Shown here in pieces: positions 3,194 to 21,538 of a stretch of DNA of 64,000 nt; position 1 is the stretch's first letter, and every line of letters starts with the position of its first letter. This DNA comes from Longimicrobiales bacterium (lineage in GTDB: Bacteria; Gemmatimonadota; Gemmatimonadetes; Longimicrobiales; Gaopeijiaceae). Location of the stretch: assembly GCA_965116905.1 (NCBI GenBank), contig OZ220732.1:3488001-3552000 (forward strand). Direction: 5' to 3'. The notes beneath the pieces are model-generated. The model was not told the DNA's origin. It ran no database searches and worked only from the letters and a program-made list of their open reading frames with translations. Made by a program: the position numbers and the translations under genes.

Positions 3194-3484
3194 CTAGTTG
3201 CCCCCGTAGAACGACGGGATCTTCAGGAGCAGCCCGTCGCGGAGCCCGTCGCGGTTGCGGGAAGCCGCGTCGCGGAGCGTCCCGGCCAGCGCGTTCGCGC
3301 GCATCCGGCCCTCGCGCCATTCGGCGAGCCGTTCGAGCTGCGCGAGTTCGGCCAGCCGCGCCCGGCTCGCCTCCTGGGCCGCCTGGTGGGCGAACACCTG
3401 GGCCACGGCCGCGTCAATGCGGCCCTGGCTCAGCGCGGCCGCCACTTCGGCCTGCTGGAGGGCTGTATTGGACAGGTTGCCGTT
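3194..3484 (-). pseudogene. trbJ: 3' part of split TrbJ/VirB5-like gene
   Basis: NGNLSNTALQQAEV... continues in frame from the 5' part ending ...GLTANGNLS at 21539. Confidence 0.8.
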
Positions 3485-3657: not shown

Positions 3658-4875
3658 ATGCCACTGACAGCCACCGCCATCCGCAAGGCCAAGCCTCGCG
3701 AGAAGCCGCGCAAGCTCTACGACAGCCGCGGCCTCTACCTCGAAATCGCTCCCCGCGGCACGAAGGCTTGGCGCTTCAAGTACCGCTTCGCGGGCAAGGA
3801 GAAGCGGATCTCCATGGGGATCTATCCCGAGGTCTCGCTGAAGCTCGCGCGGCGGCGCAGGGACGAGGCCCGCAAGCTGCTGGCGCGGGAAATCGACCCC
3901 AGCGCCTACCGGAAGGCTCGGAAGCAGTCCCGGCGGCAGGGGGCCAGGAACAGTTTCGAGGCCGTGGCAACCGAATGGCTGACCAAGCACTCGCCCAACT
4001 GGTCCACGGGCTGGGTTCGGCGGCTTGAGCGCGAGCTGGAGCGGGAGGCCTTCCCCTACATCGGCGCGAGTCCGGTCGCGGAAATCACCGCACCGGACCT
4101 GCTGGCGGTGGTCCGCCGCGTCGAGGCGCGCGGTCATCTGAGGAAGGCGCACACCGTCTTCCAGGTCTGCGGCCGCGTACTCCGCTACGCGGTGGCGACG
4201 GGACGCGCGGAGCGGGACGTGTCGGCGGATCTGCGCGGGGCGCTGCCGCCCGTCAAGACGAAGCACTTCGCGGCGATCACCGACCCGAAGGAGGTCGGTC
4301 CGTTGCTCCGGCAGTTGGACACCTACTCCGGAACGCTTCCCGTTCGCTGCGCGCTCCGTCTCGCGCCGCTGGTGTTCGTGCGCCTCGGCGAGTTGGTCGC
4401 GGCGGAGTGGGCCGACATCGACCTTGAGGGGGCCGAGTGGCGCTACACGGTCACGAAGACCGGCAGGCCGCATGTGGTGCCCTTGGCGCGTCAGGCGGTC
4501 GCGATCCTGCGCGAGGTTCATCCAATGACGGGGCATCACCGCTATGTCTTCCCGAACGCGCGTTTTCCGTACCGGGAACTGCCGATGAGCCGTGGCACGC
4601 TCTGGAGCGCGTTCCGGGCGTTGGACATCCCGAAGGAGCGGATGACGATGCACGGGTTCCGGGCGATGGCGCGCACGATTCTGGACGAGGTGCTGGGGTT
4701 CCGGCCCGACTTCATCGAGCACCAGTTGGCCCACGCGGTTAGGGATCCCAACGGACGGGCGTACAACCGGACGGCATTCCTGCCCGAGCGGCGCGTTATG
4801 ATGCAGGCGTGGGCCGACTACCTCGACCGCCTCCGGGCCGGGGAGATCGAGCCCCGGCCTCACAAAGCACCTTAG
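3658..4875 (+). CDS. int: P4-like tyrosine integrase with N-terminal arm-binding domain
   Basis: KLYDSRGLYL/WRFKYRFAGKEK N-terminus; VRLGE, HGFR, QLAH, AYNR catalytic motifs. Confidence 0.95.
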   Translation: MPLTATAIRKAKPREKPRKLYDSRGLYLEIAPRGTKAWRFKYRFAGKEKRISMGIYPEVSLKLARRRRDEARKLLAREIDPSAYRKARKQSRRQGARNSFEAVATEWLTKHSPNWSTGWVRRLERELEREAFPYIGASPVAEITAPDLLAVVRRVEARGHLRKAHTVFQVCGRVLRYAVATGRAERDVSADLRGALPPVKTKHFAAITDPKEVGPLLRQLDTYSGTLPVRCALRLAPLVFVRLGELVAAEWADIDLEGAEWRYTVTKTGRPHVVPLARQAVAILREVHPMTGHHRYVFPNARFPYRELPMSRGTLWSAFRALDIPKERMTMHGFRAMARTILDEVLGFRPDFIEHQLAHAVRDPNGRAYNRTAFLPERRVMMQAWADYLDRLRAGEIEPRPHKAP

Positions 4876-5685: not shown

Positions 5686-6234
5686 TCAGAACCGGAGCCG
5701 CGCGCCAAGAACAACGGCAGGAAGGCCATCATTGCCTCCGAATTCGATGGTTGGGCTGAGGGTGGAGTGCTGACCTTCGACCGGAGCGGGCACCCAGCGT
5801 TCGTTTCCGCCGAGGGCGGATAAACCAGCAACGAGTCCGCCCCCGACCACGGCGCCGATCCCAGCGATCCACCACGTGTTGGGGTTCGTGGCACAGCCAG
5901 TGCCGGGACAGAAGTTGGCAAACACTATACCGACCAATCCTCCCCCAAGACCCCCCAAACCGATCCCCAGCCAAGGCATTGCCACTCCGTGGCTTCTTTC
6001 CATTAGGCGGATGTCCGCCCGGGCGACGGAGTAGAACGGGCCCTCCAACGCGACCAATTCCCATCCGTCCAGGGCCAGGTCGACTCTGTCTTCGTGCACC
6101 GCCACCACCTGTCCGATCAGCAGGCGAACGTCGGTTCGAACCCGAACGCGGTCACCACGGTCCTGGGCGAGGAGTGCCTGCGCGCCGACCGGGAGGCCGA
6201 GGGTCAGGACCAGCAAGAGCCCAAAACGCATCAT
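5686..6234 (-). CDS. Exported glycine-zipper-type membrane protein
   Basis: Signal peptide MMRFGLLLVLTLG, GDRVRV motif, GxxxG helices; coupled to upstream gene. Confidence 0.7.
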   Translation of the reverse strand: MMRFGLLLVLTLGLPVGAQALLAQDRGDRVRVRTDVRLLIGQVVAVHEDRVDLALDGWELVALEGPFYSVARADIRLMERSHGVAMPWLGIGLGGLGGGLVGIVFANFCPGTGCATNPNTWWIAGIGAVVGGGLVAGLSALGGNERWVPAPVEGQHSTLSPTIEFGGNDGLPAVVLGARLRF

Positions 6235-6683
6235 GACGGAACCCCGCTTCGGAATCCGTTCGAGCTCGATATCTCGGTCGGGGAAGACTTCTCCTCGGCG
6301 ACGTTTGGCGTCGGCGGCAGGACGACGTTGCAAGCGTCTCTGCTGATCCCGCGCCAGTCGCCCGTTGCGGCGTCAATCACCGCGGGAAACACACTCAGAA
6401 GGATGCCGGGGACAACGTCAACGAGCAGCCAACCGACTTCGAATTCGGATCCGAGGATGCATGCGACATCGGAGTGGCCGTCCTTCTTGAAGACAACTGT
6501 GTGGGATTCCTGGTTGTCGAGCTCCACGGACAGCGGAGTCTTGCCGCGCATGATTCCGTTGACCCATACCTCGGCCTCCATTGGGCTCGAATACATGCCG
6601 ACTGCCTTTACCTCGCTGTTGAAAAGGGTAGCGCAGCCGGAACTCGAAACGGCGACAAGGACCAGGACGGCCAGGTGTTTCAT
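6231..6683 (-). CDS. PEGA-domain lipoprotein
   Basis: Lipobox SSGC, SSPMEAEVWVNG..GKTP..VVFKKDGH PEGA pattern, GGAGG RBS. Confidence 0.75.
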   Translation of the reverse strand: MKHLAVLVLVAVSSSGCATLFNSEVKAVGMYSSPMEAEVWVNGIMRGKTPLSVELDNQESHTVVFKKDGHSDVACILGSEFEVGWLLVDVVPGILLSVFPAVIDAATGDWRGISRDACNVVLPPTPNVAEEKSSPTEISSSNGFRSGVPS

Positions 6684-6859
6684 CGTCGACTTCCTCCCTC
6701 GTGATGGACTCCACGATCTGCGCGGTCGAAACTTCGCGCCGGGACCATGTCTCCGTCAAACGGGCGGTCCGCCGCGCGGTGCTGCGCTCGGGTGGCAAGC
6801 CACTGGACGCCATCGTCAGCGGCTCGGACCATGATCGCGATCCGGTTCCGGACGGCGCA

Positions 6860-7096
6860 TCAGATACGGAGGCCGCGCGGTCTCGCGCCGGTGGATGTCC
6901 CGTAGTACTCGGCCAAGCGTGTCACTTGCCCGTCGAGCCGCTCGATTTGCCGCTGCAAGACTTCGTTCTCCCCGCTCAGCCGCTCGACGCGCCGCCGCAA
7001 GGCTTCGACCTGCCCGGATTGCCGCCGCTGTTCCCTCTCGTACTGCGCGGACAACCTCTCCAAGGCGGTCGTCAACTGCCGTTCCAAATCGTTCAC
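6860..7096 (-). CDS. mbeD: MbeD/MobD-like mobilization protein
   Basis: DLERQLTTALERLSAQY coiled coil, nested in relaxase C-terminus as in ColE1. Confidence 0.7.
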   Translation of the reverse strand: MNDLERQLTTALERLSAQYEREQRRQSGQVEALRRRVERLSGENEVLQRQIERLDGQVTRLAEYYGTSTGARPRGLRI

Positions 7097-7108
7097 GCAG
7101 CTTCCTCC

Positions 7109-7609
7109 TCACTCTCTCAAGAGCTTCAAGTAGGGCCGCCCGTCCATCGTGAACGCCGGACGGACCGGAGTGCGGGCGGGGAGCGCCACGTACCGCTCCC
7201 CGCTGATCTCCCGCAACTCGACGCCCCAGGTCGTCTCCTGCATCCCGGCCAGGGTCTCGCGCGCCCGCTCGATCCGCACGTTCACCTCCGTCAAGGTCTC
7301 GAACCGGGAGTCGATGATCCTCGACAGCCAATGCATCGTCGCCCAGCTGCCGCCGCAGATACCGAGAAAAAGGCTCAGGCCGACGATCAGGGGCCGGAGC
7401 CAGACCCTCATCAGCGACTCGCGCATCCGCGCGGTCGCCTTCTCCGTATCGGCCTCGATGGAACGCAGCGCGCCGCTTGCGACGGCGCTCAAGTTCTCTC
7501 CAAGCCGCGCGAGCTCTCTCGCGGCCGCGTCCTCGATCCGTTGCCGGTCGGCCTCCAGCCTGCTCCTCAGCCGGGAGGTCAAGTCGCCCGGGCTCGAAGT
7601 CTCGCTCAT
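7109..7609 (-). CDS. mbeB: MbeB/MobB-like mobilization protein
   Basis: Coiled coil, one TM helix, TWGV motif; nested in alternative frame of relaxase. Confidence 0.7.
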   Translation of the reverse strand: MSETSSPGDLTSRLRSRLEADRQRIEDAAARELARLGENLSAVASGALRSIEADTEKATARMRESLMRVWLRPLIVGLSLFLGICGGSWATMHWLSRIIDSRFETLTEVNVRIERARETLAGMQETTWGVELREISGERYVALPARTPVRPAFTMDGRPYLKLLRE

Positions 7610-7967
7610 ACAGTTCTCCCTTCAGCCGCCACCGCTTTCCGCTGTCCGGATCGCGGGCGGTGATGTAGTCGTGGCCCTGGCGCGGTACCTCCAACCCCAC
7701 GTCCTCAAGGGCGGAGACCACGTCGGCGCGGCCCTTTACCGCGCCGTGCTCGACGCGCTGCACGAGGTAGTCGCGGATCAGTGTGCGCGGGTCCGCCTCG
7801 TGTTCGAGCCCGGCCCGCAGCTTCGACGCCTCGATGTAGGCCACGTGGCCCGGCCGCTGCGCCCTCGCGCGCGCCGGGTCGTCCGGGCGGCTCCAGCCGT
7901 GCTCGTGGTTGAAGGCGTCGCGTAGCGGAGCGAAGGTCTTCTCCCAGCCGGGGGGCGCGATGTTGAG

Positions 7968-8110
7968 GCGGAACGCCGAAGGTCTGAATCCCGGCAGGAA
8001 GTCGTCTAAGTCTAATCTGGACTGCACGATCTGCGTTTCTTGCCGTTGTACTGGACCCTGCTGGACCGTGCCGCGAAAGAGGGAAAACCGGACCTGAATG
8101 GCGGGAGTCC
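7968..8110. repeat. Element-terminus repeat, copy A
   Basis: Ungapped similarity to 60318-60460 and (inverted) 20845-20987 and 52072-52220; core GCAGATCGTGCAGTCC. Confidence 0.85.
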
Positions 8111-8274
8111 GCCACGAAGCAGAAACGCCTGCAAGGGCAGAGCTTTCACCGCCGAACCCCAAGCAACTGCCAGTCATGGCGGCGGAACTGTCTCGGAATG
8201 ACAGATCGCGGCGGAACCTGTTAGGTTTGAGCCGATCCAGCCTGAATCATCCCCCACACCGAGGAGGGAGGCCA

Positions 8275-8661
8275 ATGACTCGCGCTACGGCGTTCGTGCT
8301 GGTGGCGCTACTGGCGATTTCCGGCTGCATGACGGAGCCGGAAGACGTTCCCCTTTCCGGGACATGGACCGGAAGCGCTGAAGTGGACGGCACCGTCGTT
8401 TCGTTCACGTGGGAGCTTCGGGAAAGCGGAGGCGTGATCGCCGGTTCCGCATCGTTCACCCTCGATCCCGTGACCGTCACGGGGGACGTAACCGGGTCGT
8501 ACACCCACCCCGATGTCAGGATGACCTTGGTAGTACATTTCGAGCCTGGCGACACGTTGGATTTTCGATGGGTGGGAACGCGGACGAGCGACGACGTGTT
8601 GAGCGGCGTCCTACACGACCCGGACGGCGGACAGACCTCGATGACGTTGCGCCGTGGATAG
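8275..8661 (+). CDS. Small beta-rich lipoprotein
   Basis: GGAGG RBS, lipobox ISGC, LSGTWTG motif. Confidence 0.7.
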   Translation: MTRATAFVLVALLAISGCMTEPEDVPLSGTWTGSAEVDGTVVSFTWELRESGGVIAGSASFTLDPVTVTGDVTGSYTHPDVRMTLVVHFEPGDTLDFRWVGTRTSDDVLSGVLHDPDGGQTSMTLRRG

Positions 8662-8809
8662 GGCTTGACGGGATCTCACCCTATAGGCGCGGCGATTCCG
8701 GATCAGAATCGAATCTCGCGCCGGGCGGTTTCAGGTGCTTCCAAAGACCGGCTCCCGTTCTGTTGTGACGCAGCCGCTGGGCCGCGCTGTCAAAGCGGGA
8801 AGTGTGAGA

Positions 8810-9349
8810 ATGACTAGTTCCCCCATCATGCAGAGTATCGTCTGGCTCGATGCGTTTGACAAACGCCGACGGGAATACAAGAGGCTGGGGTGGGTCTACG
8901 CCGCGCGGAGCCCGTGCTTTGCCGATCCCGTCTTCAAGGTTGGCCAGACGAAGGTCTCGCCGGTCGTGCGGGTCGAGCGGCTGAGCAGTTCCACGTCCGT
9001 GTATCGACCCTTCCAGTTGGTGTACTTCGTGCATGTCTCGGATCGCGACCAAGCGGAAGGCCATGTCCATCAGGCATTGGCGGCCTCGCGGGTCAACCCA
9101 GCGAAGGAGTTCTTTGAGGTCCCCATCACCACCGTGATACGGGCTCTCGACGAAGCGGCGAGCTACTGGCCCATTCAGCTTGGACGCACCCCGCGTTCCG
9201 GTTATCTGGAACCCGCGTTGAAACCGCGAGTGGTCGTGTGTCGGCAATGCGGCGGTAAGACCAAGGTGCCTCGCCTGCTCATCAGCGTCCACGTCACCTG
9301 CAAGCATTGCTCCACAGGGTTCGAGTTGGCTTCCGACGTAGCCGGGTAG
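8810..9349 (+). CDS. GIY-YIG (T5orf172-like) nuclease with C-terminal zinc ribbon
   Basis: GWVY..FKVGQT...R...L..STSV..PF, AEGHVH, KEFF; CxxC...CxxC. Confidence 0.8.
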   Translation: MTSSPIMQSIVWLDAFDKRRREYKRLGWVYAARSPCFADPVFKVGQTKVSPVVRVERLSSSTSVYRPFQLVYFVHVSDRDQAEGHVHQALAASRVNPAKEFFEVPITTVIRALDEAASYWPIQLGRTPRSGYLEPALKPRVVVCRQCGGKTKVPRLLISVHVTCKHCSTGFELASDVAG

Positions 9350-9657
9350 TTGTGGGGCCAGAGGCGCGCTGAGAGGCCGTTTCCGGGCGGAGCGGGGGCT
9401 TTTCGGGTCGTCGGATGGCCTTGGATCGACGATCTCCGGTCGCCGAAGGGTACGGGCAAGGTGGAAATCGGTGCGCGGCAGAGAGCGCCGTCGCGCAAAG
9501 ACTCCACGGAGTGCCCCGTCGTCCTCGCCGACCCAGAGGCCGACGATCACGAGGCCAAGGAGCTTGCCCGTGACGGCTTGGTGGATGCGGCTTCGGGGGC
9601 GGTGCGCGGGAGCGTCCTCGCGGGCGTCCGCGGGGTGGCTTGAGCCACGCTAATGTG

Positions 9658-9722
9658 GCTAAGCCAGCCTACCCCTTGTGGGTACAAAGGGGCTGGCGAG
9701 GGGCTCCGCCCCTTCGATCCCC
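9658..9722 (-). promoter_or_regulatory. oriT: oriT-like site
   Basis: GGGGCGGAGCCCC hairpin-GCCAG-inverted repeat-GGCTGGCTTAG, resembling ColE1 nic context CTGG^CTTA. Confidence 0.55.
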
Positions 9723-9867
9723 TAAAGGCCAGCGCCCGCGGCACTCGGCACAGCCTAGCTCCTCCCGTCATGGGGCAACCGGGGCAATGGACCCGGTAGG
9801 GGGGCGCGGCCCATGTCTACCACCCTTCAGAATCCGGCCCCCGATCAAGAGGCAGATAAGGTCGTCC

Positions 9868-11190
9868 CTACGGCGAGTCCTCCCCGGTGGATGCCGAGTC
9901 GTCGGATCTGAAAGCGAGGCACTGGAAGTAGTCGTCAATGCGTCTGTACTCCGAGTCGTCCGAATTCATGAAGTCTGCCAGTCTTCGGATCACTTCGTCC
10001 TTGACTTCGGGTGCTGACATTTCGACGAGTTCTTCGTTGGAGAGGATCTCCGTGCGATAGCCCTTTTCCCAGCCGTAGCCCGCGTCCCAGACGGAGTACC
10101 CGTCTGGTTTCTGTCTGTTGATCGGCGTCTTCTCCATGAACCCCTTTAGCCGATCCACGAAGGAACGCTCCTCGCTGCTCTTGCTGTAGAAAGTGAAGTC
10201 CATTTCGACTCTTTGATGTGAGAATGCCATGTACCAAGAAAGGGAACCCCGGTGGCCGCCCATTCTCTGCACGGCGTCACGCAGGGTCGCGTCGGTCCAT
10301 CCCAACCAGTACCAGGTCCGAGAGGGGTTGTTGGAATACGCAGGCGTAACGCCCCGGCCCTTCAAGTAGCCTGCCACCGCAGCCCGCAGTTGCTTCGGAT
10401 CGTGTCTGGACTCCCGCACCAGCTTGGCTAGCGAGTCACGGTACTCTGTCCGGTCTGTCGGCACCATCCCGCGAACGCCGTCGTCACCGTCCTTGTCCAG
10501 GACCCGGCGCATCTCCTTCAGGATGGAGCGATGGTGGTCGAGAAGCGCCTTGAAGCCCTCGCTACCGGGACGAAACCACCTCTCGACCATATCGAGGTAC
10601 TGCCGGATGAATGCCTGGACGTTTGGAGACGGAAACCCCCCAGCTGCAAGGATCGAACCGATCTCATCGCGGACAGAGTCCCAGCCGACATGGGCGATGC
10701 CCCGGAAGTTCACGCTTCCGTCCGGCGAGGTTGTCAACAGGACGCTTCTCACCGTGTGGTCCTTGTGCTTTCTGAGTAGCGTCTCTTGGTAGCCCATCAC
10801 TTGGTGAAGATGGTGGGGATGCGCGGATTCCGGCTTGTTTTCGACGGCGATCAAACACTTCTCCTTCTTGAAGAAGATCGTGACGTCGACGTAGTCCCGT
10901 TCTCTCCAGACCTCGACATTCCCCGCATGGAAGCTGGCCTCGGGAAGATGTTCCCTATCCTCCTCCGCGAACCGCCTAGTGACGTGGTTGACAAACCACT
11001 TCAGGAACTGCACGCCGATTCCGTGGGTGTCGGCGGGCCGGAGCAGCCACGCCAGCACGTTGCTGTGGCGTATTTCGTAGCCCGAGTACCTGAGAACATC
11101 GAACGTGTTGAATTCCCTTGGCTCCACGAGCTCTCGATGGTATGCGCGGAACCGGGAGTCGTCGATCAGGTTCCGCAGGTCGCCTTCCAT
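9868..11190 (-). CDS. PD-(D/E)XK nuclease family protein (PDDEXK_4-like)
   Basis: FNTF...EIRHSNVLAWLL, VDVTI...IAVENK....Q...Y motifs. Confidence 0.85.
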   Translation of the reverse strand: MEGDLRNLIDDSRFRAYHRELVEPREFNTFDVLRYSGYEIRHSNVLAWLLRPADTHGIGVQFLKWFVNHVTRRFAEEDREHLPEASFHAGNVEVWRERDYVDVTIFFKKEKCLIAVENKPESAHPHHLHQVMGYQETLLRKHKDHTVRSVLLTTSPDGSVNFRGIAHVGWDSVRDEIGSILAAGGFPSPNVQAFIRQYLDMVERWFRPGSEGFKALLDHHRSILKEMRRVLDKDGDDGVRGMVPTDRTEYRDSLAKLVRESRHDPKQLRAAVAGYLKGRGVTPAYSNNPSRTWYWLGWTDATLRDAVQRMGGHRGSLSWYMAFSHQRVEMDFTFYSKSSEERSFVDRLKGFMEKTPINRQKPDGYSVWDAGYGWEKGYRTEILSNEELVEMSAPEVKDEVIRRLADFMNSDDSEYRRIDDYFQCLAFRSDDSASTGEDSP

Positions 11191-11439
11191 CCTCGCCCCT
11201 CCTCTGAGTGCGGTGTGCAGACCGCGCCTTTCGATACGGACCACCGGAAAGTCAGAGTGAGCAACCGGTCTCGCAAGGCCAGTCACGACTGCCCCTCGCA
11301 GTCTATCGGCGGTACTCTGGCCGCCGATGCGCGGATCATCTGCGGGGCAAGCTACGTGAGTGCACCGGAGAATGGGCTCAGGGCGCAGTTCTCCACGACC
11401 GTCCGCTGCCTTGGCAGCGGCGCGGAAGCCTTGGGGTCA

Positions 11440-11500
11440 AAGGGGGCGGAGCGCCCCTTGCCAGCCGCGACGTTCAACGTTGCGTGTGCCGGCTCCCGGA
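11440..11500 (+). promoter_or_regulatory. oriT: oriT-like site
   Basis: Closely similar to the site upstream of mobC (15140-15200). Confidence 0.6.
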
Positions 11501-11652
11501 CATTAGCACGCCGGGAGCCAGCCCTTGAGGGCCGCCTCCGCAACGCCGCTCCGGGCATCGCCCGGTACAGCCTCGGCCGGGCCGTCGCGGGCAAGCTCCG
11601 CCGCGTCGGCGACGGGCGGTTCGCCCTGCCGCGCGCCCGTTTTCGGCCCTAC

Positions 11653-11696
11653 CTCTACCCCTCGGAGACCCGAGCTCTACCCCTCGGAGACCCGAG
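11653..11696 (+). repeat. Perfect 22-bp tandem repeat
   Basis: CTCTACCCCTCGGAGACCCGAG x2. Confidence 0.9.
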
Positions 11697-11821
11697 ATCG
11701 TGCGTCAGAGGCGATCCTGCGGCCCGCATATGACCCGAAAGGCCCCTTGGACCGCCCGCAAACGGGCTCCGAGCCCGTCGAGGCGGGTAGACGGGACCGA
11801 GGGGTCGGATCAGGCTCCGTT

Positions 11822-12020
11822 GCCCCTCCCGGCCCGCCAGATACTCCGCCCACTGCTCCATCAGGACGCGACGGCGCTCGAACAAGTCCGAGCGGGCGTA
11901 GGCCGCCTCTACCTTGTCACGGACCGCGTGGGCCAGCGCGGCCTCCATGACTGCGTGGGGCGCGTCGGTGGGCTCCGCGGCCCAGTCCCGGAAGCTCGAA
12001 AACGCCCGCACGGCCATGGT
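11822..12020 (-). pseudogene. C-terminal remnant of P4-like integrase
   Basis: FSSFRDWAAE...EAALAHAVRDKVEAAYARSDLFERRRVLMEQWAEYL; no N-terminus. Confidence 0.85.
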
Positions 12021-12171
12021 CGCCGTCCGCCTGACGGCGGTCGAGGTCGAAGCGCCGTTATTGACGCCACCCAACCACTCGTCGAGTATTCCCGATCGGG
12101 TACAATTGACCGGCCTCCAACTCATCCGCGTCCATCGGGGCGCGGACCTGCCTCCAGAAAGGGTAACGGAC

Positions 12172-12819
12172 ATGGGCAGCTCGCATGATGCCGTCATGCA
12201 GTACGTGGAACAGGAAATGAAGAAGGACCCCGGCGTGAAGAATGCCACCCTGTTCGCCGGTGCCCGCGAGATCGACGAGTCGATCGGGGAGCTTAGGCCG
12301 CAACAGTTCCACGCCAGGTATCGGCTGCCGGTGACGCGGCGGATGGCGGAACAGCGACGGCCCGCACGGCAAGCGAAGGCGGCCCCGACACCCGAACCCG
12401 CGCCTGCGGCATCAGGTGATGGGGTTGCCGTCATGGAGTACGTGGAGCGGACGCTTGAGGCGAACCCCGGAATCACGAACGCGGACCTGTTCGCGGGTGC
12501 CCGCGAGATCGACCCCTCGGTAGCGCAACTCTCGGCTCGGCAGTTCCACGCGAAGTACCCTCTCCAAGTGAAGGCGCGGCTCGCAAAGGCCGCCGCGCCC
12601 GAGCCCAAGACGCCGCCGGAACCGGAGGAAGCAATGGCTGAGGAGCCCACCGCCCCGGACGTATCGTCGGCGGGGGAGGGCGACCCGCTCGCGGTCCGCC
12701 GCCTGCTGCTCGATCTGGCGAAGGAACTCGCGAACGCGGAGAGCAAGGCGGAAGTGATCGAGGTCATGGCCCGGCTGGACGACTACGTGGCCGAGATCAT
12801 GGAGGCGGCACGAGGTTGA
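12172..12819 (+). CDS. Hypothetical protein with duplicated ~50-aa domain
   Basis: Two copies of VMxYVE....xPGxxNAxLFAGAREIDxSxxxLxxxQFHAxYxLxV, Pro-rich linker, helical C-terminus. Confidence 0.75.
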   Translation: MGSSHDAVMQYVEQEMKKDPGVKNATLFAGAREIDESIGELRPQQFHARYRLPVTRRMAEQRRPARQAKAAPTPEPAPAASGDGVAVMEYVERTLEANPGITNADLFAGAREIDPSVAQLSARQFHAKYPLQVKARLAKAAAPEPKTPPEPEEAMAEEPTAPDVSSAGEGDPLAVRRLLLDLAKELANAESKAEVIEVMARLDDYVAEIMEAARG

Positions 12820-12896
12820 GTCGTCCGCGCGCCTCGGTGGCCCGTGGCGCGCACGGCACGATGAAGATAGGCCAAGAGCACCGCGCGGACGCAGTG

Positions 12897-12960
12897 CGGG
12901 GGTCCGGGGGTATCCCCCGGCCAGAGTTTTTCGTGAAGCGAAAACACATCTGGCTCCTCC
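12897..12960 (+). promoter_or_regulatory. oriT: oriT-like site (variant inverted repeat)
   Basis: GGGGGTATCCCCC-GGCCAG-GTTTTTCGTGAAGCGAAAAC-ACATCTGGCTCC, same architecture as 15140-15200. Confidence 0.45.
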
Positions 12961-13089
12961 ACAAACCGGAGAAACAAACGCCCCCGTGGCGCGCGCGACC
13001 GGGGCACCAACTCTGGACGACGCGCCCGCCCTGCGCGAGCTTCCAAACGCGCAGATCGTGCAGTCCATCGAATCGAAAGGAATCGAACG

Positions 13090-14253
13090 ATGGCACGCAC
13101 GAGAAGAAGCCGCCGGAGCTACGGCGCCGGCGAGTGGGGCCGGAACCGGGTCAGGGTGTTTCCCGACCCGAAGACCGGCTTGTTCCAAGTGGAGTGGCGC
13201 GAGAATGGTCGAAGGCTCACCCGGTCGCTCGGACACCGCGATTGGGCGAGGGCGAAGCGGCAAGCGGACGAGTTTGCCGCCGGGTTTGCAAACCCGGACC
13301 TGAACGGCAAGGCGGAAGCCGAGCCGGAGCCGCTCACCCTGGGCACGCTCTTTGAAATCTACGGTGAGGAGGTGACGCCCTCGAAGGACGAGCGCAACCA
13401 ACGGCACGACTGGATCGCGATGGCGATGTTCCGCGACTTCCTCGGGCCGGACCGAAGGCCCGAGACCCTGTCCCGGCGAGATTGGGACAGGTTCATCCGG
13501 GAGCGGCGCGCGGGCAGAATCGGTCCCAGTGGAAAACCCGTGGGCAACCGCACCCTCGAATGGGACCTGACCTTCCTGATGGCGGTGCTGAACTGGGCGG
13601 CACGGTCGAGGGACGAGCAGGGCCGCCTGCTGCTGGACCGGAACCCGCTGAAAGGTCTCCGGAAGCCGGTCGAGAAGAATCCCACCCGGGTTGTTCTCAC
13701 CGAAGAGGAGTATCAGGCGCTGCTCGGGGTCTCGCGGCGGTTGGACTGGCGGTTCCATGTTGCCCTCGTGCTCGCGCACGAAACCGGGCACAGGATCGGA
13801 GCCATCCGCAATCTCATGTGGTCGGACATCGACCTTGAGGGCGCGATGGTGAGGTGGCGGGCGAAGCACGAGAAGACGGGCTACGAGCACACCACGCCGC
13901 TGACGGACGACGCAGTGGCCGCCTTGGAGGAGGCACGGCGGATGAATCCCGAAGGCGGCGACGGTCCGGTGCTGCCCGCGCCGACAAACCCCGCGGAGTG
14001 CCTCGGTGGCTGGCGGGCGCTGAAATGGTGGTACAGGGCCGCGACCCTCGCGGGGCTCGAACCGAAGCGCGGGCGGGCTTGGCACTCGCTCAGGCGCAAG
14101 TTTGCTTCGGACCTGATGGACCAGCCGCTCAAAGTGCTCTGCGAACTCGGCGGGTGGAAGAACCCCCAGACGGTCCTGACCTGCTACCAGCAGGCGAACA
14201 CGGGACGACTCAGGACGGCTCTGGAAAGCCGCCGGAGGGTTCGCTCCCGATAG
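13090..14253 (+). CDS. int: Tyrosine recombinase/integrase of the inner element
   Basis: ETGHRIG, KTG, WHSLRR, LGGW, CYQ catalytic motifs. Confidence 0.9.
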   Translation: MARTRRSRRSYGAGEWGRNRVRVFPDPKTGLFQVEWRENGRRLTRSLGHRDWARAKRQADEFAAGFANPDLNGKAEAEPEPLTLGTLFEIYGEEVTPSKDERNQRHDWIAMAMFRDFLGPDRRPETLSRRDWDRFIRERRAGRIGPSGKPVGNRTLEWDLTFLMAVLNWAARSRDEQGRLLLDRNPLKGLRKPVEKNPTRVVLTEEEYQALLGVSRRLDWRFHVALVLAHETGHRIGAIRNLMWSDIDLEGAMVRWRAKHEKTGYEHTTPLTDDAVAALEEARRMNPEGGDGPVLPAPTNPAECLGGWRALKWWYRAATLAGLEPKRGRAWHSLRRKFASDLMDQPLKVLCELGGWKNPQTVLTCYQQANTGRLRTALESRRRVRSR

Positions 14254-14347
14254 AATCCCAACCAGCGGGAATCAAACGGCGGGAGTCGAACTACCTAAAC
14301 TCCCAAGTTACACGCTCACAACAACATGCGTCTCCAATGGCATTTGC

Positions 14348-14729
14348 TGTTGAGGCTGCGGCCCGTCTGGAGGTCGCACTGCGCGGCGAGGATGTGGGCG
14401 TGGACGCCTCCGCCGCGCTCGCGGTGCAGGACCGCCGTCCAGGCATAGCGGTCCGGGTCCAGCCCCGCCCAGGCCGTCTTCTCGAACTCGTCGAGGACGG
14501 CTTCGATCTGTTCCTCGGTCGGCCGGTCCTCGGGCGCCCACGCGATCACGGCCGACGTGTACCTGCGCTCGAAGTCGAGCGAGTCGGCCACGGCGGCCAC
14601 CATGTCCGGGTTGCCGCGCACGACTTCGACGCCCTCGCGCTCGTGTCCCGCCGCGTCGCGCTCTCCGACGAGATACTCGACCGCCGCGCGGGCCGAGCCC
14701 TTCCCGTGGGAGAGGAACTTAACGAGCAT
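14348..14729 (-). pseudogene. mobA: 5' part of split MOBP relaxase
   Basis: MLVKF...AVEYL (catalytic Tyr)...HRERGGGVHAH (3H motif)...TGRSLN. Confidence 0.9.
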
Positions 14730-15054
14730 CGCCGGCCTCCTCGCCGATACGGGCCACGGCAAGCAACGAGCGCTCGAGGGAGACCAAGTGAGCGATCACC
14801 GAGACGGCCTCGGCCGTCGAGGCGTGGGTGTTCGCCCACCGCGCGAGCTGGTTCAGGTTGTTCCCGATGCGCGCGATCTGGCGGGTGCGCTCGCGCTCGA
14901 CGGCCCGCGCCGACGCGGTCCACGTCCGCGTCCGCGCCATCGCCTCGCGAAGCAGCGCGGAGGGGGAGACGCCCGCCGCAGCCGCCTTCTCCCGCCAGGC
15001 GGCGTGTTCGGCGGGCGTGACCCGCGCGGCAACCAGGGCGGTGCGGTCAGCCAC
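14719..15054 (-). CDS. mobC: MobC relaxosome accessory protein
   Basis: RHH N-terminus, RQIARIGNNLNQLAR motif; overlaps relaxase start. Confidence 0.9.
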   Translation of the reverse strand: MADRTALVAARVTPAEHAAWREKAAAAGVSPSALLREAMARTRTWTASARAVERERTRQIARIGNNLNQLARWANTHASTAEAVSVIAHLVSLERSLLAVARIGEEAGDAR

Positions 15055-15139
15055 GTCCGCACCGTTGCCGGGGGTCGGAGCGCGGCCGCCCGCGCCCGTC
15101 CGCCGACCTCTCGGCGGCGCGGAACGCAGGGGGATCTGA

Positions 15140-15200
15140 AGGGGGGCGCAGCACCCCCTCGCCAGCCGCAACGTTTAACGTTGCGTGTGCTGGCTCCCCG
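15140..15200 (+). promoter_or_regulatory. oriT: Probable cognate oriT upstream of mobC
   Basis: GGGGGCGCAGCACCCCC-GCCAG-CGCAACGTTTAACGTTGCG-TGTGCTGGCTCC directly upstream of mobC. Confidence 0.7.
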
Positions 15201-15766
15201 GCCTTAGCGGTGTCCGACAAGCCCGTCCGCCGCAGCCGCGGATGCTCCGGCTCAACGCGTCGCATCGACCCCTTCGACATGCTTGCCCGCCCCGGGGACC
15301 CCGGCTTGGGCTTCCCTCGGCGGCGAGCGCCCGGTAAGCGGCTCCGCGCATGGATGCCCGGACTCATCCGCTCCCCGAATGCCGGGCGCGATCTCCTCGG
15401 CGACCAAGCCCCGCGCAGTTGCACGATGCCTGCGCTCGCCGCCGAGTTCAACTACTTGCTCCAGCATCTCCATGACTCGAACGTTGAAGCGCCGTTCCCA
15501 AGGGAGTCAACTCGTAGGAAACGTCCTGCAGTCCACCGATGTCCGACGATGTCCGGCAAGGTACGCGGGCTGTTGGGCACCGCCGCCAGCGGCTTGTCGA
15601 AACGCCTCCTGTGGGCCGTCGAAGCCCGCTTTCATGGCGTGGTTGCGGCTCCGGACGAACGACCCTCGTAAGCTGTGCGGTCGTGAGATGCAGCCCTACC
15701 TTTGGGTGATCCCTCCGTTAGGGCGGAGCCATCAAGACACCACGAAACTTCAGGAGGAGCGCAACC

Positions 15767-18700
15767 GTGAGCCGCTATCGAATCTTCGCGATGGCCGCAG
15801 TAGGGCTGTCGGCGACGGTGTGGGCATATGCGTGCGGCGACGGGGCGACGGAGCCCACGCCCACCCGCGACCCGTCTCGGCCGACAACCGTGACGGTGAC
15901 GCCGGCGAGCGCTGAACTCACGGCGATCGGGGCGACCGTGCACTTGGCGGCACAGGTCCTCGACCAGAACGGACAGGCAATGGCGGGAGCAGCCGTCACG
16001 TGGTCGAGCGGTGCAACCTCGGTGGCGACGGTGAGCGCGGCGGGCGTGGTGACGGCGGCAGGCAACGGCACGGCAACGATCACGGCCACGGCGGGCTCGG
16101 CGTCGGGCACGGCGAGCATCACGGTGGCCCAAGAGGTCGGCGCGGTCACAGTGACGCCGGCCGCCGACACGCTGCTGGCGCTCGGCGACACGTTGCGGCT
16201 CTCCGCCGAGGCCAGCGACGCGAACGGTCACGTCGTGGAAGGGACGGCGTTCAGGTGGGTGTCCGCCGACACGCTGGTGGCCATAGTGGACAGCACCGGG
16301 CTAGTGACGGGAATCGAACCCGGCGAGGTATCGGTGACGGCCACGGCGGGCTCGGCGTCGGGCACGGCGAGCATCACGGTGGCCCAAGAGGTTGGCGCGG
16401 TCACAGTGACGCCAGCCGCCGACACGCTGCTGGCGCTCGGCGACACGTTGCGGCTCTCCGCCGAGGCCAGCGACGCGAACGGTCACGTCGTGGAAGGGAC
16501 GGCGTTCAGGTGGGTGTCCGCCGACACGCTGGTGGCCATAGTGGACAGCACCGGGCTGGTGACGGGAATCGAACCCGGCGAGGTATCGGTGACGGCCACG
16601 GCCGCAGGGGTAAGCGGCCACGCTGAACTGACCGTCGCAGCCCCGGTGCCGACGACGTTGTCGGTGACGCCGGACACGGTGGCGTTTACGGCTATCGGAC
16701 AGAGCGTGCAACTCGCCGCCGAGGTGCTGGACCAAGCCCGGCGCGCGATGGAGCACGTACAAGTGTCCTGGTCGAGCGCGGACACCACCGTCGCTACGGT
16801 CGACTCGGCCGGTCTGGTGACGGCGGTGAGGAGTGGAACAACAACGGTCACTGCTTCTGCAAGCGAGGCATCGGGCGAAGCCGTGGTGACGGTGATGCAA
16901 TCGACGGGCTCGGTCGTGGTGTCACCCTCGGCAGACACGGTGGCGCTCGGCGACACATTGCGGTTGGTGGCGGAGGCGTTCGACGAGAACGGGCATGCAG
17001 TCGAAGACGCGGAGTTCAGTTGGTCGTCGAGCAACGGTTCGGTGGTGACGGTGGACGCGTCGGGGCTGGTGACGGGGGTCGCCGAGGGGATGGCCGAGAT
17101 CACGGCGGGGGCCGGGGATGCCCAGGGAACTTCCGAGATCACGGTCGAGAACCCGGATCGGGCGGCGCTCGTCGCGCTCTACAACGCAACCGACGGTCCG
17201 AACTGGGTCAACAGCGAGAAGTGGCTGACGGAGGCGCCCCTGGGCGAGTGGTACGGGGTGGACACGGACGCTTCCGGGCGCGTCGTCGGTCTTGATCTCG
17301 GAGGTCAGAGAGACGAGGACAGCCGCCAGTGGATACCGCACGGCCTCGCAGGTCCGATACCGCCAGAACTGGGCAACCTCACCGAGTTGACGGAGCTGAA
17401 CCTCCGCCACAACGCACTTGTGGGTCCGATTCCGGCAGAACTCGGCCGCCTCGCGAGGCTGACGCGACTCGACCTCTGGCGCAACCGCCTCACGGGTCCG
17501 ATACCGTCAGAACTGGGCGCCCTTGCCAGCTTGACGGTGTTGTGGCTCTCCGACAACGACCTCTCCGGCGCCATCCCACTCGAACTTGGCAGACTCGGCG
17601 ACCTCAGGAATCTGGGGCTTGCTGGCAACCGGCTCGCGGATGCGATCCCACCCGAGCTCGGCAACCTCGCCAAGCTGTGGCAACTCTCGCTCGGTTCCAA
17701 CCAGCTTTCCGGTCCGGTCCCGCTTGAACTTGGAAAGCTCGCCAGGCTGCGGAGTCTGGATCTCGGATATAATGACCTGAGCGGCCCGATCCCCGAGAGC
17801 TTTTTCAAGCTTGATGGGCTGAGATACTTCTACTTTGAGGAAAACGCCGGTCTCTGCGCGCCGGGCACGTCTGCTTTCGTGACATGGTTGGACACCATCG
17901 AGAACCGCGACGAGGGGCTCTACTGCAACGCGGCGGATGCGGTTGTGCTCGAAGCCCTCCACGACGCCTCCGGCGGGCGGGAATGGACGAACTCCGAAGG
18001 CTGGCTCGGGACTCCGGCGCTCGCGCAATGGCATGGTGTGACGGCGGATTCCCTCGGCCGGGTCGTAACCCTTGATCTCACCCGGAACGGCCTGACGGGT
18101 CAGCTGCCGAACAATCTTGGCACATTGGCCGGGATGACCATCCTACGGATCGGGGACAACGCGTTGTCCGGTCGCTTGCCTTCTTCGCTCAGCAGTCTGT
18201 CGCTGGTCGAACTCGACTACGCAGACACGGAGTTGTGCGCGCCATCCGACGAATCTTTCCAGACCTGGCTGGCCGGAATACCGTCGCACGAGGGCACCGG
18301 GGAGGAGTGTGCTCCGCTGACGGAACGCGAGATCCTTGAAATCTTCTACGACGCAACAGGTGGACCGAACTGGACGAACAACGACAACTGGCTGACCGAT
18401 GCACCGCTGAGAACATGGCACGGTGTCCGGGTGAACGGCCAGGGCCGGGTTGGGAGATTGTCCCTCAACTCCAACAACCTCACTGGCTCCATCCCTCCGG
18501 AACTCGGAAGCCTTGCCAACCTGACGCAACTGAATCTCACCCGGAACGCCGTAACGGGTGAGATTCCGCCTGCACTGGGCAACCTCTCGAACCTGACGTT
18601 CCTGGCACTCGGCGGCAATGCTCTCGAAGGTCCGATCCCGCCTGAACTGGGCAACCTAACCGGACTGTGGAGGCTGTTCCTGTGGCGCAATGATCTTTCC

Positions 18701-20812
18701 GGTCCTATCCCTCCCGAACTCGGCAACTTGAGCAAGTTGGACTACCTGTCACTCAGCACCAACAACCTGACGGGCACCATCCCTCCCGAACTCGGCAATC
18801 TGTCAAGCGTGACCGAACTTCACCTGCAGGCGAACGCCTTGACGGGCGCCATCCCGGGACAACTCGGCCGCCTCACCACCGCCGAGGTAATCCTTCTCTG
18901 GGGCAACGCCCTGACCGGCGAGATTCCGTCGGAACTCGGCAATCTCCCCAGCGCAAGGGTTCTTTCCCTGAGCGACAACCAGCTTTCCGGCCCGATACCG
19001 GCCGCGCTGGGGAACCTGCCGAGCGTGACCTACCTGGCGCTGGACGAGAACGCCTTGCCGGGTGACCTCCCCCCCCAGCTCGGCAACCTCTCGACCGTCG
19101 AGGAACTGTTTCTGGACAACAACGACCTTTCGGGCCAAGTGCCTCCGGAGTTTGGCAGGATGTCGAACCTGACGGAACTGGGCCTGGCGAACAATTCCGG
19201 GATGGAGGGCCCCCTTCCAACCGCGTTGACCGCTCTGGGCCAGGTCGAGGCGCTCATGGCCGGGGGCACGCAGTTGTGCGCGCCCTCGGATCCGGCCTTC
19301 CAAGCTTGGTTGGAAAGGGTCCATAAGCGTCGGCTCCAACCCTGTGCCGAAGGCGACCCGCCGACGGCGTACATGGTCCAGGCCGTACAGTCGTGGGAGT
19401 TCCCCGTACCGCTGGTCGCGGACGAGGACGCGCTGCTGCGGGTGTTTGTGACGGCCACAACAGGCACCAGCGCGAGCATTCCGGCGGTCCGCGCGCGCTT
19501 CTTCCGCAACGGCCGGGAGACGCACGTGGAGGAGATCCCGGGCAAGCCCGCGCCGATCCCCACCGAACTGGACGAGAGCAGTCTCTCGAAGTCGGCGAAC
19601 GCCGAGATACCCGGCCATGTGATTCAGCCGGGGCTCGAGATGGTAATCGAGGTGGACCCGGACAATACCCTGAACCCGGCGCTGGGCGTGGCGAAACGGA
19701 TCCCGGCTACGGGCCGGCTGGCGGTGGATGTACGGGCGATGCCCCTCTTCGACCTGACGCTGATCCCGTTCATCTGGACCGAGAGCCACGATTCGTCGAT
19801 CGTGGACCTGGTCAAGGCCATGGCTGCGGACGCCGAAAGCCACGAGATGCTTTCGGATACGCGCACGCTGCTGCCGGTCGGAGATCTGGTGGTGACGGCT
19901 CACGAGCCCGTAATGACCTCGAGCAACAGCGCATTCGTGTTGCGCGACCAGGCCAAGGCGATCCGCGCGATGGAAGGCGGAACCGGACACTACATGGCCA
20001 TGATGTCCCGGCCGGTGACGGGTGCCGGCGGTGTGGCGTTTCTGCCTGGCCGGGCGAGTTTCTCGCTACCGCGCGCATCCACGATCGCCCATGAACTCGG
20101 CCACAACATGAACCTCCAGCACGCGCCCTGTGGAACATCTGGGGACCCTTCGTATCCGTATCTGGACGGATCCATTGGCGCATGGGGCTACGACTTCCGC
20201 GATGGCGGAAGCCTCGTGCGCCCGTCCAGGCCCGACCTGATGTCCTACTGCTTCCAGTCACGATGGATCAGCGACTTTTCCTTCACCAACTCGCTCCGCT
20301 ACCGCCTGTTCGACGAGGGTCCTCCGGCAGCGGCCGTCGCCACCAGGTCGCTACTCCTGTGGGGCGGAATCGGCGCCGACAGCGTACCCTACCTCGAACC
20401 GACGTTCGTGATCGAGGCGCCGCCAACGCTACCGGATTCCGCTGGCGAATACGGGCTTACCGGGCGGTCTGAAAACGGAGCCGAACTGTTCTCGCTGGCC
20501 TTTACCATGCCGGTGACGGCCGACGGCGACGGGAGTTCCAGCTTCGCCTTTGTGCTGCCGGTACGGCCGGGTTGGGAGCACCGCCTCGCAAGCGTCACGC
20601 TGACTGCACCCGATGGATCGACAACGCTCAACCGGGACAGCGACCTCCCCATGGCCATCCTCCGCAACCCGCGCACCGGACAGATTCGCGGCATCCTGCG
20701 TGACCCGCCGCTTGCGACTCAGGCGGCCGCAGACGCGGGAACGGCGCGCGTCCAGGGTCTGGACGTGATGTACAGTCGCGGGATCCCGGACGCGGATGCA
20801 TGGCGGCGATGA
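15767..20812 (+). CDS. Giant lipoprotein: Ig-like (Big_2) repeats, plant-type LRRs, C-terminal HExxH (M66-like) metallopeptidase
   Basis: Lipobox AYAC; VTVTP..WSS repeats; LxGxIPxELGxL repeats; IAHELGHNMNLQHAPCG. Confidence 0.9.
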   Translation: MSRYRIFAMAAVGLSATVWAYACGDGATEPTPTRDPSRPTTVTVTPASAELTAIGATVHLAAQVLDQNGQAMAGAAVTWSSGATSVATVSAAGVVTAAGNGTATITATAGSASGTASITVAQEVGAVTVTPAADTLLALGDTLRLSAEASDANGHVVEGTAFRWVSADTLVAIVDSTGLVTGIEPGEVSVTATAGSASGTASITVAQEVGAVTVTPAADTLLALGDTLRLSAEASDANGHVVEGTAFRWVSADTLVAIVDSTGLVTGIEPGEVSVTATAAGVSGHAELTVAAPVPTTLSVTPDTVAFTAIGQSVQLAAEVLDQARRAMEHVQVSWSSADTTVATVDSAGLVTAVRSGTTTVTASASEASGEAVVTVMQSTGSVVVSPSADTVALGDTLRLVAEAFDENGHAVEDAEFSWSSSNGSVVTVDASGLVTGVAEGMAEITAGAGDAQGTSEITVENPDRAALVALYNATDGPNWVNSEKWLTEAPLGEWYGVDTDASGRVVGLDLGGQRDEDSRQWIPHGLAGPIPPELGNLTELTELNLRHNALVGPIPAELGRLARLTRLDLWRNRLTGPIPSELGALASLTVLWLSDNDLSGAIPLELGRLGDLRNLGLAGNRLADAIPPELGNLAKLWQLSLGSNQLSGPVPLELGKLARLRSLDLGYNDLSGPIPESFFKLDGLRYFYFEENAGLCAPGTSAFVTWLDTIENRDEGLYCNAADAVVLEALHDASGGREWTNSEGWLGTPALAQWHGVTADSLGRVVTLDLTRNGLTGQLPNNLGTLAGMTILRIGDNALSGRLPSSLSSLSLVELDYADTELCAPSDESFQTWLAGIPSHEGTGEECAPLTEREILEIFYDATGGPNWTNNDNWLTDAPLRTWHGVRVNGQGRVGRLSLNSNNLTGSIPPELGSLANLTQLNLTRNAVTGEIPPALGNLSNLTFLALGGNALEGPIPPELGNLTGLWRLFLWRNDLSGPIPPELGNLSKLDYLSLSTNNLTGTIPPELGNLSSVTELHLQANALTGAIPGQLGRLTTAEVILLWGNALTGEIPSELGNLPSARVLSLSDNQLSGPIPAALGNLPSVTYLALDENALPGDLPPQLGNLSTVEELFLDNNDLSGQVPPEFGRMSNLTELGLANNSGMEGPLPTALTALGQVEALMAGGTQLCAPSDPAFQAWLERVHKRRLQPCAEGDPPTAYMVQAVQSWEFPVPLVADEDALLRVFVTATTGTSASIPAVRARFFRNGRETHVEEIPGKPAPIPTELDESSLSKSANAEIPGHVIQPGLEMVIEVDPDNTLNPALGVAKRIPATGRLAVDVRAMPLFDLTLIPFIWTESHDSSIVDLVKAMAADAESHEMLSDTRTLLPVGDLVVTAHEPVMTSSNSAFVLRDQAKAIRAMEGGTGHYMAMMSRPVTGAGGVAFLPGRASFSLPRASTIAHELGHNMNLQHAPCGTSGDPSYPYLDGSIGAWGYDFRDGGSLVRPSRPDLMSYCFQSRWISDFSFTNSLRYRLFDEGPPAAAVATRSLLLWGGIGADSVPYLEPTFVIEAPPTLPDSAGEYGLTGRSENGAELFSLAFTMPVTADGDGSSSFAFVLPVRPGWEHRLASVTLTAPDGSTTLNRDSDLPMAILRNPRTGQIRGILRDPPLATQAAADAGTARVQGLDVMYSRGIPDADAWRR
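16082..16601 (+). repeat. Near-perfect 255-bp tandem duplication (one Ig-like domain)
   Basis: Units start at 16082 and 16337; identical 85-aa translation. Confidence 0.9.
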
Positions 20813-20844
20813 AGCAATAACACGGCAGTCTCTCAGAGCGTCCG

Positions 20845-20987
20845 CGGCTTCCCACCATTCGGTCTCGGCTTTCCGCCGTTTTCGGCAGACCGAATCAGCT
20901 ACAAGCTAACGGCAGGAATGGCAGATCGTGCAGTCCTGTATGAACTTACCTGATTCCTTGGCGTGACTTGCGCCTCCGGCATTCCGC
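20845..20987. repeat. Element-terminus repeat, copy B
   Basis: GCAGATCGTGCAGTCC at 20921-20936, TTCCGC boundary 51 nt later. Confidence 0.8.
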
Positions 20988-21275: not shown

Positions 21276-21538
21276 TCGGCCTGTCTCCTTCTCTCAATGG
21301 TGAATCCCGTAATCATCCGGGCGTTGGTCCCGTAGTGCTCGGAGTGAACACGAGTACCCGGTTGGCCGTCGCCAGCGTCGGCGAACGGCCTCGCCGCGAG
21401 GGCTCAGGACGCTGAAGGGCAACGAGTCCTGCTGACGTGGGTTGTTGGAGGCGACTGCACGTTTGGGGCAACTCTGGGGGCATCTCGGAGGCCTGCGAGC
21501 CAATGAGCCAATAAACACAACGACTTACGTGCTGCCTT

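Follow-up and report, generated by a model that had tools for sequence, protein, structure and literature searches.

How might an element that encodes no relaxase spread from within the relaxase gene of another mobile element, and what happens to its host while it sits there? The question is raised by the window analyzed here, a stretch of 64,000 nucleotides from a Longimicrobiales bacterium (contig OZ220732.1, positions 3,488,001 to 3,552,000) within a 4.2-Mb single-contig genome of 68% G+C. Three nested layers are supported in this region, in agreement with the original prediction of a relaxase-less element inside a satellite's own relaxase gene: a 6,387-bp inner element lies in the relaxase gene of a middle element, and the middle element lies in the trbJ-like gene of an integrative and conjugative element (ICE). 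We regard it as fairly probable that the inner element is a relaxase-less element bearing origins of transfer (oriT), that it belongs to an integrase subclade targeting relaxase genes, and that it likely spreads by excision, with a borrowed relaxase and the secretion system of the ICE. Its boundaries, its gene content, the restoration of the relaxase frame and the repeated independent use of one relaxase codon by its relatives are demonstrated in the sequences described below.

Boundaries and oriT-like sites of the inner element

The inner element is bracketed by an exact 9-bp repeat, TGTTGAGGC, at 7961 and 14348. Only these two copies occur in the window, the match cannot be extended, and about 0.025 same-strand copies would be expected by chance per 8 kb. 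Removal of the insert together with one repeat copy leaves a 508-aa open frame that runs from QTGRSLN directly into IAPPGW, which bears out the predicted restoration of a full relaxase. The 5' half (14352 to 14729, minus strand; 126 codons followed by a short foreign tail to 14316) carries Tyr19 and His102/110/112 and matches Pfam Relaxase, and the 3' half (6816 to 7961, minus strand) aligns at 60 to 68% with intact paralogues. The break thus falls after codon 126, just past the three-histidine motif. Both halves match the ColE1 MbeA model (E 4e-18 and 7e-11), with scores far under the model cut-off; an intact paralogue reaches 92 bits against a cut-off of 500 and is accordingly a distant relative.

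The interrupted module shows the features of the ColE1-type MOBP5 group, namely MbeA similarity, an upstream mbeC, embedded mbeB and mbeD and a CTGGCTTA-like nic. As in the ColE1 mob region, the gene order is mbeC-mbeA-mbeB-mbeD, with overlapping small genes and a CTGGCT nic motif upstream of mobC. The mobC/mbeC gene lies at 14719 to 15057 (minus strand; Pfam MobC, NikA-like), an mbeB-like gene (7109-7609, minus strand) and an mbeD gene (6860-7096, minus strand; Pfam MbeD_MobD) overlap the 3' half of the relaxase gene, and the oriT-like site of the middle element, located by oriT profile comparison, spans 15117 to 15226 (plus strand) with CTGGCT near 15190. The module differs from ColE1 (MOBP5/MOBHEN) in its chromosomal integrative context, its scores far under the MbeA cut-off and its three-histidine motif, whereas ColE1-type relaxases carry an HEN motif.

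Two oriT-like sites, A and B, which are absent from the original prediction, were identified inside the inner element with a profile made from 23 oriT-like regions that lie ahead of mobC. Site A (11420 to 11507, plus strand; profile E 6e-13) is of the host-relaxase type, with 77% likeness and a score of 108 to the host oriT, and has CCGGCT in place of CTGGCT. Site B (9639 to 9735, minus strand; profile E 3e-16) retains an unchanged CTGGCTTA at 9660-9667, the nic-containing sequence of ColE1 (PMC5703827), and its local score is 97 against the paralogue oriT at genome position 65085 versus 48 against the host oriT. The folding z-scores of the two sites (-2.9 and -1.5, versus -2.4 for the host) are not decisive. 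No relaxase was found among the genes of the inner element by Pfam annotation and relaxase homology searches. Judged by these genes and predicted sites, the inner element is a relaxase-less, putatively oriT-bearing integrative element, of the kind defined as an iOriT or a relaxase-less integrative and mobilizable element (IME).

The tyrosine integrase of the inner element (13090 to 14253, plus strand; PF00589; phrog_1, E 2e-47) has the catalytic residues R235, H332, R335, W and Y366. As predicted, it is a different recombinase from the outer integrase, to which it is only ~32% identical over 167 aa. A PDB sequence search returned only weak XerD/lambda matches, and a search for an arm-binding domain gave a weak AP2-like match (E 0.066) alongside the conserved repeats at both element ends. 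The attL core (7961 to 7969, plus strand) consists of a 7-bp overlap, TGTTGAG, followed by GC, and is repeated exactly in the attR core (14348 to 14356, plus strand). The adjoining left end (7970 to 8111, plus strand), with a 16-bp motif and a GCGGGA doublet, is conserved in the integrase family and has 13 copies in the genome; in the right end (14260 to 14347, plus strand), delimited by alignment of family ends, the doublet stands at 14265 and 14279. The family ends have in common a TGC-N7-GC core, the GCGGGA doublet and the 16-bp motif. The repeats GCGGGA(A/G)TC, which had been described as arm-like, are present at 8101, 14265 and 14279, and the doublet takes a fixed position in 7/7 aligned right ends and a looser placement in 13 aligned left ends, but the motif by itself is common, with 208 copies in the genome. 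The short inverted termini that had been described fared less well: the inverted match is imperfect and needs a gap, and integrase core sites around the 7-bp overlap (TGC-TGTTGAG-GC) are a better reading of the ends than transposon termini.

A perfect 18-bp inverted repeat, not described before, has its arms at 8018-8035 and 13050-13067. The left arm (8018 to 8035, plus strand) has the motif that recurs in left ends and ahead of integrase genes, at most 70 nt from the integrase start in 126/128 elements, and is likely a protein-binding site. The idea that the repeat borders an invertible cassette was dropped, as left ends and integrase starts regularly carry the motif.

Recurrent insertion into relaxase genes

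The targets of related integrases, here given by our own handles, were surveyed as the original prediction had proposed, and the survey supports a preference for relaxase genes. The close set comprises 12 integrases that are at least 86% identical and have a visible right junction, the window included; G045 (integrase 87%) was left out as its contig stops before the right junction. Genes of this relaxase family are interrupted in 11/12 cases, nine of them at codon ~127 (the window, G046, G022, G019, G068, G067, L123, L126 and L237) and two at codon ~325 (G054 and G041), where an 81% relative, L135, is also inserted. Across the nine cases at codon ~127, orientation and codon are identical. Removal of the insert reopens frames of 522, 507 and 507 aa in three other complete elements (G068, G067 and G054, respectively). 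One search query contained relaxase sequence, yet it also returned flank-less relatives, and the other integrase and end searches were target-blind. A target-blind search with the end pattern gave three metagenome matches and one viral match, of which two were chance matches without an integrase (L238 and L240), one was a duplicate and one was new; no further exact match was new among 53 genus genomes.

The integrases form a subclade with an SH-aLRT support of 97 for 8 rows in a quick tree. Their split targets are scattered by comparison: for the seven split relaxases tested among 40, a single clade was rejected (p-AU 7e-130), this test covering 7 of the 9 split copies, with the G019 relaxase frameshifted and L237 added later. 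Each split relaxase except one pair is nearest to a relaxase unsplit at 127, and integrase and relaxase identities are uncorrelated (Spearman 0.01, from 21 non-independent pairs). Being polyphyletic, the split relaxases point to independent insertion events, and integrase identity stays at 86-95% across genomes whose host relaxases are unrelated. The overlap is the same at both ends and varies with the synonymous base of the host, G067 and G068 having an identical overlap at both ends as in the inner element. The exact site is present, as an empty site, in 23/33 unsplit relaxases. TGTT[GC]AGGCT occurs at 16 sites in the genome, 2 of them in relaxases; at this rate, finding 9/10 in relaxases has P ~7e-8, with the window counted in.

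These data bear on the suggestion that the insertion reflects low-specificity, Tn916-like transposition followed by chance survival in a dispensable gene. In its favor, 63/163 family junctions fall in a mixed group of other sites that includes ordinary genes, and one close relative is off target. Nine independent cases with the same codon and orientation, targets that follow integrase subclades in the tree and overlaps identical at both ends make this account very improbable, and for this subclade it is already largely refuted. Survivorship, the persistence of insertions in DNA that is dispensable and mobile, could exaggerate the bias and to that extent weakens the case for targeting, but it does not account for a fixed codon and orientation.

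Two relatives deserve separate mention. L107:6958-17638 is a relaxase-127 targeter with its own oriT-mobC-relaxase, which a left end from another subclade interrupts near codon 435-443. L126, where the integrase (88%) occupies relaxase codon ~127 as well, comes from a record labelled Dehalococcoidia and represents either cross-phylum transfer or a binning error.

Nested layers and a probable route by excision with a borrowed relaxase

The surrounding ICE, whose integrase lies at tRNA-Val directly upstream of the window, encodes a coupling-type protein, ArdC and VirB2/3/4/8/9/10-like proteins. A search with PF02534 gave no match for its coupling protein, and a TrwB/TraG-D-type protein was found in its place. 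Its integrase at tRNA-Val (L001:11067-11141) is a 68% member of the integrase family of the inner element. The middle element is an 18-kb P4-type element that splits the trbJ-like gene of this ICE, as previously noted, between 14-bp direct repeats at 3471 to 3484 and 21539 to 21552 (both plus strand). The 5' part of the gene (21539 to 22167, minus strand) has 84% likeness to an intact 308-aa homologue, the 3' part lies at 3194 to 3484 (minus strand), and removal of the middle element yields a 301-aa frame. The TrbJ assignment is weak, with the intact homologue reaching E 0.012 against TrbJ_Ti TIGR02780, and is supported by the position between TrbI and a TrbL-like gene. The P4-type integrase (3658 to 4875, plus strand; Pfam Arm-DNA-bind_3 and Phage_int_M) has its closest copies at the same trbJ site in 6/8 cases, the window's copy included, and elsewhere in the other two. 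An alpA-like gene (21049 to 21297, minus strand), with 57% likeness to a Pfam AlpA protein at 27353-27844, is likely the putative excisionase of the middle element.

The genome encodes a single VirB4 system and a single trbJ-like gene; conjugation from this strain therefore likely depends on excision of the middle element, which would restore that gene. Matters differ for the relaxase. The interrupted gene has three intact paralogues, each with mobC and a CTGGCT-type oriT, that align across the junction, and no intact relaxase in the genome belongs to the host relaxase's own clade in the relaxase tree. The availability of these paralogues would make the relaxase step a leaky switch rather than a lock. 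Nicking of the inner element can probably do without repair of the host relaxase, as the intact site B resembles the paralogue oriT type and the nic motif of site A is altered. The inner element would have to excise to travel alone, but not for the repair of its victim; nicking at its oriT-like sites in the integrated state is conceivable.

These observations argue against the strict AND gate of the original prediction, in which transfer would need both the host relaxase and TrbJ to be restored, a requirement that would guarantee a circular inner element whenever transfer can occur. Several facts would suit such a gate: the sites at which the two genes are split are used repeatedly, the genome has a single VirB4 system and a single trbJ-like gene, and site A matches the host type while every intact relaxase in the genome falls outside the host's clade. 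Set against this are the three intact paralogues, the unchanged nic motif of site B that fits their oriT type while that of site A has changed, and the nine relatives in relaxases of varied contexts, some at least behind family-type elements that are not trbJ-embedded. In addition, the relaxases are intact in other trbJ-embedded elements (G009 and G058), which indicates that a relaxase is a normal component of the middle element and that the triple nesting resembles two independent targeting habits meeting. We consider the gate improbable; nothing guarantees a circle whenever a relaxase is present, and of the two excisions said to be required, that from trbJ is the more plausible and that from the relaxase gene probably unneeded.

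The preferred reading, spread by excision with a borrowed relaxase, would proceed as follows. The integrase would recombine TGC-N7-GC(G/T) cores via the 7-bp overlap. Insertion would cut the relaxase past its catalytic motifs and part mbeB and mbeD from the operon start, likely inactivating the host relaxase, so that the middle element could not start its own transfer while the inner element is inserted. Excision would restore the host relaxase exactly. A relaxase, either the restored host enzyme or one of the three intact paralogues, would then act in trans on site A or B of the freed element, and the ICE pore would export it. The choice of target likely pays, as a relaxase gene would mark both a mobile location and a cell with a compatible helper.

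Several findings weigh against this scheme. All three catalytic motifs remain on the 5' half, so that loss of function is presumed. A free exact target (14-mer) persists in the paralogue at genome position 65470, which gives no sign of recent jumping, and the close relative G047 lies outside the relaxase family, in a gene for an ABC-2 permease, with an identical overlap. No oriT is detectable in G068 and G054, and G067 has its own cut relaxase; the subclade thus has a common target, not a common lifestyle, and oriT piracy is not subclade-wide. No excision product or circle of the inner element was demonstrated in 4 of 24 listed sequencing runs, of which the one raw-read run gave no coverage. 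Finally, no full excisionase-like gene adjoins the inner integrase. Only a remnant of the ICE xis-like gene, its last 27 codons, lies at 13007 to 13087 (plus strand; tblastn 56%, E 0.007) and contains the right arm 13050-13067 of the inverted repeat.

A joined 7960-14348 form in contigs of three runs was rejected as proof of excision, since its 92% likeness, a depth of ~4x genome in X22 and exact X23 contigs unbroken across both junctions indicate that these contigs are probably paralogues. A circle joint may be present among 72 further joints. The full xis-like gene is encoded by the ICE only (HTH_17 match, E 0.17), and its helix-turn-helix part was found in 0/8 relaxase targeters. Licensing of inner excision in trans by the ICE xis-like protein is an attractive but weakly supported idea.

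Much of this evidence would also suit a passenger or saboteur, inserted site-specifically, moving only inside its host element or now immobile, with oriT-like sites that are relics of mobilizable ancestors. The relatives G068 and G054 without detectable oriT, the mutated site A, the lack of a full xis-like gene, the unused free target and the abundance of orphan ends and broken integrases in the genome all agree with this reading. We consider it unlikely, although less so than the strict gate: the integrase is intact and keeps 86-95% identity between genomes whose host relaxases are unrelated, which requires independent movement, site B is intact, and both ends and the overlap are perfect.

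The middle element has further features of its own. A third copy of the 16-bp motif, with 1 mismatch (6706 to 6721, plus strand), lies behind the relaxase and ahead of a PEGA-domain gene, at the place where siblings have an integrase. A family left end persists at 20844-20975, and the integrase-upstream motif now precedes the PEGA lipoprotein gene (window 6231-6721); the relatives L231 and L236 still have integrase fragments at the PEGA-gene position. On these traces, the middle element resembles a P4-type shell that encloses a decayed relative from the inner element's family.

The integrase family, known systems and the wider locus

Among named organisms, the inner integrase has its closest carriers in Ca. 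Palauibacter and other Longimicrobiales (Gemmatimonadota). The genome itself has six close paralogues, together with many orphan family ends and broken family integrases, and matches occur in 22/24 sampled genus genomes, with up to 40 per genome. Three of the paralogues directly follow intact homologues of the interrupted relaxase. This relaxase-then-integrase layout is found in 27/115 other elements versus 0/6 relaxase-127/325 targeters. The invader thus comes from the same family as its victim's mob module, but lacks a relaxase.

We identified 163 distinct family junctions, in a sample biased to close integrases and few genomes. They lie in relaxases (19), sibling integrases (21), mobC (6) and oriT nic (17), together 63/163; the remainder comprises a 12-bp repeat site (15), two other repeat motifs (16), tRNA (5), other sites (63, covering ordinary genes and further mobile genes) and one without flank. 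Targets track integrase subclades in a quick tree of 103 rows. A tentative extension is that these are the conjugative counterpart of helper-embedded satellites, in which integrase subclades of sponge-associated Gemmatimonadota would each seize a mobility part of their kin (oriT nic, mobC, three relaxase sites and four integrase sites), members without an excisionase would be freed only by the ICE xis-like protein, and ICE induction would unpack the nest in a cascade, each excision enabling the next transfer step; this is doubtful as a whole.

Sister subclades have fixed target sites in family integrase genes, at codon ~84 (L016, L017, L019 and L118-L121), a site that the window's integrase also has, and at codon ~367 (L066, L068, L122, L140, L149, L156-L158, L164 and L191). 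A further subclade enters DUF222 genes (L132, L182, L187, L197 and L102), and two other members, L028 and L201, lie at ssb genes.

Nested elements, insertion in essential transfer genes and an excise-to-restore hypothesis are published (PMC5704250, PMC9585547, PMC11389934). Streptococcal IMEs include IME_traG in Tn5252-family ICEs and IME_oriT in Tn916/ICESt3, and the review proposes that excision restores the transfer module, so that both elements transfer (PMC5704250). The inner element is like these IMEs in its site-specific insertion into an essential transfer function of the helper. They are reported to encode a relaxase of their own, and they insert in the coupling-protein gene, maff2, SNF2 or oriT of an ICE, whereas the inner element has no relaxase and has entered a mobilizable element's relaxase gene, a level further into the nest. 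IME_oriT reportedly encodes its own relaxase.

Helper-embedded phage-inducible chromosomal islands (PICIs) have an integrase clade with subclades evolving new helper-gene sites (PMC10111431), and the excise-to-restore idea has been published for them too. Like them, the family shows occasional off-target events and an attP without replacement sequence. These PICIs are phage satellites in prophage late genes with demonstrated excision, whereas here the targets are conjugative mobility parts, often in sibling elements, and known from sequence alone. None of the PICI gene set (primase, AlpA beside integrase, capsid genes) was found in 7970-14347 by Pfam and PHROG searches, so the element is PICI-like in action but not a PICI.

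Genomic islands named iOriTs have an integrase and an oriT without relaxase or pore genes (10.64898/2026.01.13.699239). The inner element shares with them defence-like cargo beside oriT, but iOriTs are described as unrelated to their helpers except in oriT, whereas the inner element is kin of relaxase-bearing siblings, sits inside a relaxase gene and has two oriT types. MGI-type islands are also relaxase-less, with an integrase and oriT. The Ll.LtrB group II intron homes to relaxase genes, and its removal controls conjugation (PMC1874635, PMC6003770, PMC7293003). It moves by RNA splicing and reverse transcription, in contrast to DNA excision by a tyrosine integrase in an element without intron-type genes; Pfam and PHROG searches found no reverse transcriptase or maturase among the inner open reading frames.

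A literature search with sparse coverage of subscription papers turned up no DNA integrase directed at relaxase genes, although survey supplements may list such sites, and no study of Palauibacter mobile elements. Integrase insertion in relaxase genes is apparently new, whereas nested hitchhiking and excise-to-restore are already known and the logic-gate reading was overstated. The locus offers a countable case, three layers deep, of mobile elements that prey on other elements' mobility genes, and its related integrases (70-95% identical) with different readable targets are material for the study of site switching by tyrosine integrases. The published idea that conjugation is restored once an embedded element excises becomes testable with one integrase, two oriTs and four relaxases. 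Annotators should note that a relaxase, mobC, integrase or trbJ gene found split in these genomes may be interrupted reversibly and not dead.

The cargo of the inner element consists of a small predicted lipoprotein (8275 to 8661, plus strand) with a signal-like N-terminus and no Pfam, PHROG or PADLOC match, a T5orf172/MUG113-domain protein (8735 to 9349, plus strand; Pfam E 2e-9, partial PADLOC PDC-S57 match) and a PD-(D/E)XK nuclease as candidate defence cargo (9868 to 11190, minus strand; Pfam PDDEXK_4, PADLOC PDC-S26 E 3e-35 over half of the model). A 215-aa two-repeat hypothetical protein (12172 to 12819, plus strand), of a type often upstream of family integrases, belongs to a Gemmatimonadota cluster and has homologues in L020/L096, L110, L111, L123 and L135.

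Elsewhere in the window, orphan family left ends lie at 52071-52201 (minus strand), 52335-52622 and 60330-60463 (plus strand), and no partner right ends were found for them; one orphan left end splits an oriT-like site ahead of a mobC fragment. Two unannotated ICE core proteins are encoded at L001:13087-13992 (minus strand) and window 584-1504 (minus strand); the former has a strong Atlas lead to Replic_Relax and is not counted as a demonstrated ICE relaxase. Two tRNA-Val 5' fragments ~85 and ~99 kb off (genome 3565456 and 3580180) suggest tandem accretion. The ICE also contains IS21, IS110 and an rve-type transposase, and large Ig/LRR surface-protein and defence cargo at window 15767-20812, 32614-48212, 56941-60132 and 61079-63997 and at L003:892-5649, with defence genes for GmrSD, NucS-like, McrBC and PD-(D/E)XK proteins.

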